24,537 bases of DNA from a phage, in assembly GCA_025881525.1 (NCBI GenBank), contig GCA_025881525.1_4849.1. One strand, 5' to 3'. A model generated the notes under the pieces. That model ran no database searches. It saw only the letters and a program-made list of their open reading frames with translations, and was not told where the DNA came from. Below are positions 1-24,325 of this stretch, piece by piece. The position numbers were made by a program, and so were the translations under genes. The stretch's first letter is position 1, and every line of letters begins with the position of its first letter.

Positions 1-8
1 CCCTTTTT

Positions 9-123
9 ACCCACGAAAAATAAAAACATTCAAATCAATGATTTACGATGAAAAACGTGGGGCAACCAACCTTCCCCACGACCTGCCCCACGGGCAAAAA
101 TTTACCCCACGAGCACGTTTTTA
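9..123. repeat. Cluster of CCCCACG heptamer repeats (about 5 copies, direct and inverted), including hairpin CGTGGGG-N11-CCCCACG at 56-80
   Basis: Read directly: cccacga 10-16, cgtgggg 56-62 (inverted), ccccacg 74-80, 86-92, 105-111; non-coding leader upstream of first gene. Confidence 0.55.
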
Positions 124-134
124 ACTCATTCCTG

Positions 135-163
135 TTGACGTAGAATCGCAGCTGATGTAGATT
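135..163 (+). promoter_or_regulatory. sigma70-like promoter candidate TTGACG-17bp-TAGATT for early plus-strand block
   Basis: TTGACG 135-140, 17 bp spacer, TAGATT 158-163; about 30 bp upstream of first ATG; overlaps conserved TTGACGTAGAAT motif. Confidence 0.4.
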
Positions 164-9762: not shown

Positions 9763-9780
9763 CACCTCACTCATCGTTTG

Positions 9781-9836
9781 ATGTAGATACTATGCACCAC
9801 CACTCAATCTACGTCAACAGTCATTGTGATAGAATT
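9781..9836. promoter_or_regulatory. divergent promoter region: TTGACG -35 (minus, 9812-9817) and extended -10 TGaTAGAAT (plus, 9827-9835), built around the 15-mer AATCTACGTCAACAG
   Basis: Read directly; located between divergently oriented gene blocks. Confidence 0.45.
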
Positions 9837-12519: not shown

Positions 12520-12575
12520 TATTGACGAATCTACGTCACTTAGTCAATACTGTTGGTGTAGAATGATTCTACCAC
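12520..12575. promoter_or_regulatory. divergent regulatory region with TTGACG, AATCTACGTCA motif, inverted repeat TGACG-N6-CGTCA and 15-bp palindrome GTAGAATgATTCTAC (12558-12572)
   Basis: Read directly; between divergently transcribed blocks. Confidence 0.4.
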
Positions 12576-22249: not shown

Positions 22250-22310
22250 TTTCTACGTCACTAACTATAAACACGCCATCAATCTACGTCAACAGGAATA
22301 TGCTAAAATC
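22250..22310. promoter_or_regulatory. divergent promoter region with two direct copies of TCTACGTCA (22252-22260, 22283-22291); minus: TTGACG-17-TATAGT; plus: extended -10 TGcTAAAAT (22301-22309)
   Basis: Read directly; 15-mer AATCTACGTCAACAG identical to the copy at 9806-9820. Confidence 0.45.
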
Positions 22311-23927: not shown

Positions 23928-24325
23928 TGCCAGCGAAATTAAGGGGCGTCAGGCAGGCCGTAGAGAGAACCTCGCAAATCGTGGATGAGATAATCGCCAC
24001 GAAAGCGGTGCGTGCTCTGAAGTCAGCGACATACATCATCCGCACCGAATCAGCTACGTTGACGCCGATTGATACATCAACGCTGATTAACAGTCAGTTT
24101 GATACCGTGGAAGTTAGCGGAACTCGAATCACTGGCAAGGTTGGTTACTCTGCAAAATATGCGCTGTACGTCCACAATGCCAGCGGTAAACTTGCAGGTA
24201 AACCACGCAGCAACGGCAATGGCACGTATTGGAGTCCGGGAGGGGAACCACAATTCCTGACCAAAGCGGCGCAGCGCACAAAAGAACTTGTTGATAGCGC
24301 GATTAAGAAGGAGATGACACTCTAA
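23924..24325 (+). CDS. putative HK97 gp10-like head-tail joining / tail completion protein (133 aa)
   Basis: Size and motif GYSAKYALYVHNASG reminiscent of gp10-like family; tentative. Confidence 0.45.
   Translation: MMPAKLRGVRQAVERTSQIVDEIIATKAVRALKSATYIIRTESATLTPIDTSTLINSQFDTVEVSGTRITGKVGYSAKYALYVHNASGKLAGKPRSNGNGTYWSPGGEPQFLTKAAQRTKELVDSAIKKEMTL

Follow-up and report, generated by a model that had tools for sequence, protein, structure and literature searches.

A cluster of CCCCACG heptamers at the left end of the window

The window (the whole 24,537-bp stretch of DNA analysed here) originates from a T1-like siphophage, and its best DNA matches were Shigella phage DS8, EcoIv28_Lewi, IME207, Akira and Vi II-E1. 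A non-coding region at its left end carries a cluster of the heptamer CCCCACG in both orientations, followed by a rightward early promoter. The small terminase gene, TerS, lies at 2393-2839 and thus about 2.3 kb downstream of the cluster, where an earlier inspection of the letters alone (the sequence-only reading) had placed it. Four exact copies of the heptamer were found between 56 and 111, and these are the only ones in the window, compared to 1.2 expected from shuffles. The sequence-only reading had counted at least five; four of these are exact, but the fifth, at 9-15, is ACCCACG and agrees with the heptamer at only six of the seven positions. The inverted repeat CGTGGGG-N11-CCCCACG at 56-80 was correct as described there. 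The flanking A5 tract was also found where it had been given, at 51-55, but the T5 tract is located at 118-122 and not at 116-120.

The grouping of the copies was not random. Three or more heptamers within 60 bp did not occur in any of 1000 first-order Markov simulations of the window, and two or more within 60 bp occurred in 0.5% of 1000 such simulations. With up to one mismatch allowed, CCCCACG was not enriched across the window (30 seen, 36.9 expected), showing that the signal is a local cluster and not a genome-wide word. The features of this region are as follows.

1-15, plus strand: innermost degenerate copies, truncated by the window edge; CCC at 1-3 is what remains of a TGCCCC half-site found whole in relatives, and ACCCACG is at 9-15
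16-55, unstranded: A/T-rich spacer between the inner degenerate copies and the main cluster, with A-tracts at 16-20, 22-26 and 51-55
51-122, unstranded: right-hand cluster of putative iterons, framed by a 9-bp outer inverted repeat, AAAAACGTG (51-59) and CACGTTTTT (114-122)
56-62 (minus strand), 74-80 (plus), 86-92 (plus) and 105-111 (plus): exact copies of CCCCACG
56-80, unstranded: inverted pair CGTGGGG-N11-CCCCACG, in which TGGGG.A and T.CCCCA are invariant among 17 distinct relatives
69-92, plus strand: 12-bp tandem ACCT(T/G)CCCCACG, ACCTTCCCCACG followed by ACCTGCCCCACG, containing copies 2 and 3
84-96, unstranded: small palindrome TGCCCCACGGGCA, in which copy 3 stands opposite a partial inverted half-site, GGGCA
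105-111, plus strand: outermost copy, part of TTTACCCCACG (101-111), with TACCCCA invariant in all relatives
135-163, plus strand: rightward early promoter TTGACG-17-TAGATT, outside the candidate origin cassette and at the right border of what behaves as an exchangeable module

In relatives, the sequence runs on across the position of the window start as ...ATCTGCCCCTTTTTACCCACG. The spacer at 16-55 was kept in the closest relatives and was replaced or shortened in loci of the L012, L018 and L020 types. Within the tandem at 69-92, the alignment of relatives showed that CCT.CCCCA is conserved, and the palindrome at 84-96 was retained as TTACCCACAGGGGTAA or TGCCCCAGGGGCA in relatives of the Klebsiella/Aeromonas type. 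From the end of the cluster to the -35 element of the promoter at 135-163 the distance is 23 bp. The sequence-only reading had mentioned neither the tandem, nor the palindrome, nor the outer inverted repeat, nor that the element continues past the left edge of the window.

A separate motif, TTGACGTAGA, overlaps the start of this promoter. It is the reverse complement of what the sequence-only reading had called the ATCTACGTCA family, and it occurs seven times in the window with up to one mismatch (1.1 expected), at 135-144, 2763-2772, 9778-9787, 9808-9817 (minus strand), 12530-12539 (minus), 22252-22261 (minus) and 22283-22292 (minus). Because the copy at 135 forms the -35 part of TTGACG-17-TAGATT, the family appears to be an extended promoter motif of the -35 type.

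The repeats flank the most AT-rich DNA of the DS8 genome

The left arm of the element and the helicase gene are situated beyond the left edge of the window and were read from relatives. In DS8 and Vi II-E1, position 1 of the window falls within a divergent intergenic region of approximately 460 bp, with a leftward operon on one side and the rightward early genes on the other. Directly to the left of the window start, both phages have about 150 bp of DNA at 12-18% GC, and beyond this AT-rich centre there is a second cluster, GGGGTAAATTGGGTTAACGTGGGGCAACCAACCTGCCCCACG. The second cluster consists of three direct TGGGG-type copies at a spacing of about 10 bp, followed by a twin of the inverted pair; overall, the left arm has 3-4 copies of TGGGG(C/T/A)A and ends in the inverted pair CGTGGGGCA-N7-TGCCCCACG. 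Read from left to right, the order is the leftward helicase operon, the TGGGG copies, the AT-rich centre, the cluster seen in the window and the rightward early promoter. Thus the window holds the right-hand arm, and the relatives show repeats on both sides of the 12-18% GC centre in opposite orientations, the two arms being about 230 bp apart around one AT-rich segment. Besides DS8 and Vi II-E1, another 20 distinct relatives had the full element. The Vi II-E1 record annotates both 25-bp copies as repeats, with no function given.

The complete DS8 genome (44.6 kb) contains six copies of CCCCACG, and all six are in this one intergenic region. The density of the heptamer is therefore not similar across the genome; it is absent elsewhere in both the window and the DS8 genome. 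The AT-rich centre is the 120-bp stretch with the lowest GC content in DS8, at 14%, and the next lowest has 27%. The cumulative GC skew of DS8 has its global minimum at 24134, about 30 bp to the left of the left-hand CCCCACG cluster, a position at which the skew is confounded by divergent transcription.

Sequences in IMG/VR and GenBank gave 22 distinct versions of the region, which we aligned. TGGGG or CCCCA was invariant at each repeat position across these versions, and the bases between and around the repeats varied. The CG of the heptamer is specific to the DS8-like subgroup, and the general core is (T)(G/T/A)CCCCA. In phages of Aeromonas, Vibrio and Klebsiella, the DNA matched the window over the repeat core only. 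The question raised with the original observation, whether the region would be conserved at all in related phages, was thus answered by the TGGGG/CCCCA core, which is its most conserved part even where the flanks cannot be aligned.

The AT-rich centre was strongly conserved in sequence as well, with CTAAGTATATGTAATATAATA..., TATTATTATTCATATTATAG and TTAACA-N-TTAACAAA. This conservation goes far beyond the needs of an unwinding element, so the centre must hold something more, for example promoters or a priming site. Hexamers resembling those of sigma-70 promoters were seen on both strands of the centre. In addition, a segment CTAAGTATATGTA...ATTATTATT is common to loci with CCCCA-type repeats and to loci with GGATAA-type repeats (3850-3990 of L001 and 4190-4250 of L007). 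Possible roles for this conserved AT-rich segment are those of a priming site, an origin promoter or a host-factor site.

Two readings of the repeat DNA as something other than a set of protein-binding sites were discarded. A structured RNA was rejected, as the sole Rfam match, STnc290 (E = 0.95), scored 19.5 bits where the gathering score is 60, and the RNA fold of the minus strand was unremarkable (z = -0.69). A coding reading was rejected as well, since the open reading frame of 44-46 aa across the repeats is limited to the closest relatives and broken elsewhere. In DS8 it is annotated as a 44-aa 'hypothetical protein' (QCQ57315, 3990-4124 of L001), and it was also called in Bas78, Bas79 and AB4P2. 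This 44-aa frame is probably spurious because it is absent or frameshifted in most relatives.

A DUF3987 helicase is encoded next to the repeats

In relatives, a protein of 517 aa is encoded by the first sizeable gene on the left; it matched Pfam DUF3987 (E 1e-34) and PHROG 2373, 'DNA helicase'. DUF3987 proteins have been described as SF6 replicative helicases that are related to MCM, bear a C-terminal wHTH and usually have a primase encoded beside them (PMC4889955), and 5'-3' helicase activity was demonstrated for one of them (PMC11724360). The next-but-one gene in DS8 encodes a primase of the DnaG/P4-alpha type with the P4-alpha zinc-binding domain.

An AlphaFold model of a 99% identical protein had a mean pLDDT of 89.9 and a pTM of 0.87. 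The best fold matches of the model in the PDB were subunits of eukaryotic MCM2-7 and archaeal MCM; all of the 50 best fold matches listed were MCM proteins, and the Rep helicase of Staphylococcus pathogenicity islands (SaPI Rep) was not among these 50. When the helicase was compared with PDB sequences, both as a single protein and as a profile, no match was obtained, SaPI Rep included. In the predicted structure, residues 442-512 follow the winged-helix-like order H-S-H-H-S-S at a pLDDT of about 90, and a separate PHROG covers residues 442-516. We therefore predict, on the basis of the model, that the 517-aa helicase carries a C-terminal winged-helix DNA-binding domain. A motif in the C-terminal domain, YDSxKxxRPFKGxP, was common to the helicases found with CCCCA-type repeats and differed in T1 and Jahat, a difference that is not separable from the overall divergence of these proteins.

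The type of repeat follows the type of helicase

Many relatives are about 90% identical to the window over the rightward promoter and early genes, with the similarity setting in abruptly at window positions 133-135, just before the -35 element. Upstream of this point, they have another helicase-type protein and another short repeat, again in clusters by an AT-rich stretch. The cassettes were as follows.

Window/DS8: 517-aa DUF3987 helicase; repeat CCCCA(CG)
Seszw_1 (L007 4100-4430): 495-aa protein; repeat GGATAA
Bas80 (L008 4050-4440): 526-aa protein; repeat TTTACCGG
Sf11 (L009 180-430): 777-aa PrimPol-helicase; repeat GGGAAGC
Sf11 subtype (L059, upstream region): PrimPol-helicase, 93% identical; repeat TTTGCCA

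The helicases of the Seszw_1, Bas80 and Sf11 types were unrelated to the DS8 helicase in BLASTP. Four helicase types correspond to four repeat types at one locus, and the right border of the alternative cassettes is exactly the -35 of the common early promoter. In IMG/VR, all 24 loci with a DS8-type helicase (86-100% identity) had 3-10 copies of CCCCAnn within 1.3 kb upstream, compared to 0-1 copies over the same distance at loci of the three other helicase types. Phages with a 99% identical TerS but another helicase had other repeats (GGATAA, TTTACCGG or GGGAAGC) in the same place. These comparisons suggest that the type of repeat follows the type of helicase, although the two are adjacent and linkage could explain part of the pattern, and that the helicase gene and its repeats behave as one exchangeable cassette.

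The two PrimPol-helicases of L056 and L059 are 93% identical to each other, yet their repeats are GGGAAGC and TTTGCCA, respectively. Among the 54 differences between the two proteins, 25 are located in the N-terminal ~50 and C-terminal ~45 residues (17-65 and 724-766), and these two stretches are candidate specificity determinants. The presence of 93% identical proteins beside different repeats means that a small subdomain, or else a different factor, could determine specificity.

Other proteins encoded at the locus were considered as the binder of the repeats and rejected. A MarR-like wHTH protein is 89-95% identical in Bas80, Sf11 and Seszw, whose repeats differ, and is 36-39% identical in Klebsiella/Aeromonas phages of the CCCCA type. 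A small AP2/HNH-associated-like protein of 90 aa is encoded between the helicase and the repeats; phages of the CCCCA group have small ORFs of three unrelated types there, and in Vi II-E1 the gene is a pseudogene. The 90-aa protein of DS8 (3457-3729 of L001) resembles the AP2-type DNA-binding modules of phage HNH endonucleases, with a Pfam AP2 match at E 7e-4 and matches to PHROG HNH families down to 1e-13.

Repeat clusters persist beside distant helicase orthologues

Since adjacency of the helicase gene and the repeats could give co-inheritance, distant orthologues of the helicase were examined, and clusters of the same core were found as follows.

L073 (helicase 62% identical): 13 TGGGG/CCCCA in the 565-bp gap upstream, with 2 more across the other 4.9 kb
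Pectobacterium phage Ymer (49%): CGTGGGGAAC...GTCCCCACGGTTCCCCACGGTTCCCCAC where the helicase operon begins, with the helicase itself six genes away
L078 (42%): ACCCCA/TGGGGT around AT-rich DNA, downstream of the helicase gene
L079 (39%): (A)CCCCCA/TGGGGG around TATATA-rich DNA, on a 78-kb contig with different neighbour genes

In Ymer, a second cluster, of CCCCAC, lies across AT-rich DNA from CGTGGGGAAC...GTCCCCACGGTTCCCCACGGTTCCCCAC. The density of CCCCA/TGGGG in the gaps of the orthologues was 11-25 per kb, compared to 0.4-0.8 per kb outside. The clusters thus persist, on either side of AT-rich DNA, down to 39% helicase identity, though the flanking genes and the gene order differ. The contexts in Ymer, L078 and L079 weaken the linkage objection without removing it. 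In Escherichia phage Jahat_MG145, which has a 35% identical orthologue, no CCCCA cluster was found within 3 kb of the gene.

The orthologue in coliphage T1, ST9, is a 34% identical DUF3987 helicase. At about 110-430 of the T1 record (L076, NC_005833), GATTAACA/TGTTAATC repeats occur in both orientations around AT-rich DNA at 205-300. This is the same genomic position as in DS8, between the leftward operon that bears ST9 and the rightward early genes. The sole annotation over this stretch in the T1 record is the 2.8-kb terminal repeat, and both the record and the terminal repeat start about 100 bp from the T1 repeat/AT-rich region.

A candidate bipartite origin of replication

We consider it likely, from comparison of the sequences, that positions 1-122 of the window are the right arm of a bipartite, iteron-type replication origin with a self-loading DUF3987 initiator-helicase. 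An array of iterons was one of the options named in the sequence-only reading, and it is now well supported by the bipartite repeats around the most AT-rich DNA of the genome, by their position beside the helicase operon and by the repeat following the helicase. An iteron origin is favoured because the cluster is non-random and unique, has an origin-like layout, a helicase partner and a repeat that co-varies with that partner, because the motif persists in distant orthologues, and because there is a precedent in the SaPIs. In the proposed mechanism, the 517-aa helicase with its MCM-like SF6 fold would recognise (T)GCCCCA(CG) through the C-terminal winged helix, assemble on both repeat arms, melt the AT-rich centre and load itself, without a separate initiator or loader, and the neighbouring primase of the DnaG/P4-alpha type would prime synthesis. 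Each of these steps (binding to the repeats, melting, self-loading and priming by the neighbouring primase) is one that we infer. An oriC-type origin dependent on DnaA was rejected, as DnaA boxes (TTATNCACA) were at chance level in the locus, with no exact box and 11 one-mismatch boxes compared to 12.1 expected.

The repeats could instead be operators for two divergent early promoters, bound by the helicase or by another protein of the cassette, with no role in the initiation of replication. Inverted repeats are typical of dimeric regulators, the right cluster stops a short distance before the -35 of the rightward promoter, and the left cluster is placed just to the right of a leftward promoter, TTGCAA-17-TAGTAT, which was read by eye and is absent from the list of the promoter scan. 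Autorepression of the initiator promoter through iterons is common in plasmids and phages, and an added autoregulatory role of the repeats, beside the origin, is likely. Operators without an origin are unlikely, however. The rightward promoter and the early genes are about 90% identical in phages with entirely different repeats, and since that similarity starts at 133-135 the promoter works independently of the repeat type. Furthermore, the MarR-like protein and the small ORFs, as candidate regulators, do not co-vary with the repeats, the cluster in L078 is downstream of the helicase gene and away from its promoter, and a regulator would leave the bipartite layout around the most AT-rich DNA of the genome unexplained. 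Another reading takes the inverted repeat at 56-80, together with its T-run, as an intrinsic terminator or an insulator hairpin against leftward transcription; the twin in the left arm would then serve rightward transcription, and the AT-rich centre would be shielded between the two. Both hairpins were called terminator-like in DS8, each with its T-run toward the AT-rich centre, and the upstream hairpin shows some compensatory exchange, of C-G for A-T at one inner pair, with the observed values reached in 0 of 500 and 6 of 500 shuffles, a weak signal that is not separable from phylogeny. In the window, the terminator scan called none. The A-run (the T-run of the minus strand) is missing in 7 of 22 distinct relatives, and the hairpin at 56-80 shows no covariation, its stem pairing being 84.3% compared to 83.6% in shuffles, 196 of 500 of which reach the observed value. 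Without excess stem pairing at 56-80, two protein half-sites are favoured over a selected stem. There is no leftward gene to the right for about 8 kb, and three further direct copies would be left unexplained, making a terminator extremely unlikely; taken as a terminator, the hairpin and T-run named in the sequence-only reading were neither conserved nor accompanied by covariation.

A further option, also named in that reading, was that the cluster is a pac site or part of one, where the small terminase recognises the DNA and headful packaging starts. The cluster is upstream of the terminase genes, and pac of T1-like phages has been assigned to untranslated DNA separating the two early gene blocks (PMC7718038). 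In T1, the 2.8-kb terminal repeat with which the record opens starts close to the T1 repeats, and the Akira, Sf11 and Ymer records likewise have their break within this region, although the start point of a record is often the authors' choice. Against a packaging site, repeat type and TerS are uncoupled from each other in both directions. The window and Sf11 have a 99.3% identical TerS with CCCCACG and GGGAAGC, respectively, and Seszw and pIS4-A have a 96.6% identical TerS with GGATAA and CCCCA, respectively; conversely, the window and pIS4-A both have the CCCCA core, with only 51% identity between their TerS proteins. Thus a pac function of the repeats themselves is very unlikely and was not supported, but the pac site may be nearby, in DNA outside the repeats. 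A variant that we regard as quite unlikely is that the origin region also starts the headful packaging series, with the terminase guided by an origin-associated structure or complex and not by a TerS-specific sequence. If true, such origin-directed packaging would couple the initiation of replication to packaging.

Comparison with known origins

The candidate origin most resembles the Rep/ori system of the SaPIs. In a SaPI ori, iterons of 5-6 nt are divided equally between the two sides of an AT-rich region, with opposite orientations; a self-loading helicase binds them through its WH domain, each island having its own specificity (PMC9371898). The element described here is alike in having short repeats (5-7 nt) in 6-12 copies, half on each side of central AT-rich DNA and in opposite orientations, in adjoining the helicase gene, in a repeat that is specific to the helicase variant, in the predicted C-terminal winged helix and in having no known separate loader. 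It differs in that the helicase belongs to DUF3987, with matches to the MCM-like fold and no detectable sequence similarity to SaPI Rep. The ori is just downstream of rep in the SaPIs, whereas in most of the phages here it is upstream of the helicase operon, and the centre here is longer, at about 150 bp, with a highly conserved sequence. For SaPI Rep, both binding and melting have been demonstrated, whereas the element here is known from sequence comparison. By analogy, the element would thus resemble SaPI Rep/ori in mechanism and not be a member by descent.

In phage P4, the alpha protein has a primase, a helicase and a C-terminal DNA-binding domain in one polypeptide, and its short repeats are in two clusters, ori and crr, kilobases apart. 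A replication protein of the primase/helicase type with a C-terminal DNA-binding domain and short repeats in two separate clusters are the common points. In contrast to P4, helicase and primase here each have a gene of their own, and about 230 bp separates the two clusters. The lambda ori and the iteron plasmids (RepA, TrfA, pi) are alike in that initiator-binding repeats adjoin an AT-rich unwinding element and that the initiator and iterons are exchanged as a module among related phages. Lambda differs in that its iterons are 18-19 bp long, are found inside the O gene and are bound by a non-helicase initiator that depends on P and on the DnaB of the host; the repeats of the present element lie between genes and have a core of 5-7 nt, and the helicase itself is the candidate initiator. 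Coliphage T1 has the same genomic position and layout, but another repeat sequence, and its helicase gene is 2.7 kb away with eight genes between.

In the papers on T1-like phages that the search covered, no origin of replication was identified (TLS, PMC11447400; SU57, PMC7718038), and iterons were likewise reported as not found (PMC11447400, PMC7718038). Iteron origins are well known as a kind, and the added value here, which is of some weight, is a candidate origin for the widely used T1-like phages together with a natural set of helicase/iteron cassettes. The candidate can be tested in many T1-like siphophages of Escherichia, Shigella, Salmonella and Klebsiella and, judged by layout, in T1 too. 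It carries the proposal that an MCM-like (DUF3987) helicase of a bacterial virus may recognise its own origin. The phages also offer a natural swap, in that genomes about 90% identical elsewhere have at least four helicase/repeat cassettes at a single locus, which makes the specificity determinants easy to map. This is relevant for engineering these phages, several of which are candidates for therapy or biocontrol, and for their annotation, as short ORFs across the repeats are probably spurious.

Several database records have an end in the origin-like region. These include Akira (1-50 of L003) and Ymer (position 1 of L077 and of L072), and the start of the Sf11 record (1-340 of L039) is duplicated at the record end; position 1 of the window, too, falls in this region. 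Such breaks could be a matter of convention or could be physical ends.
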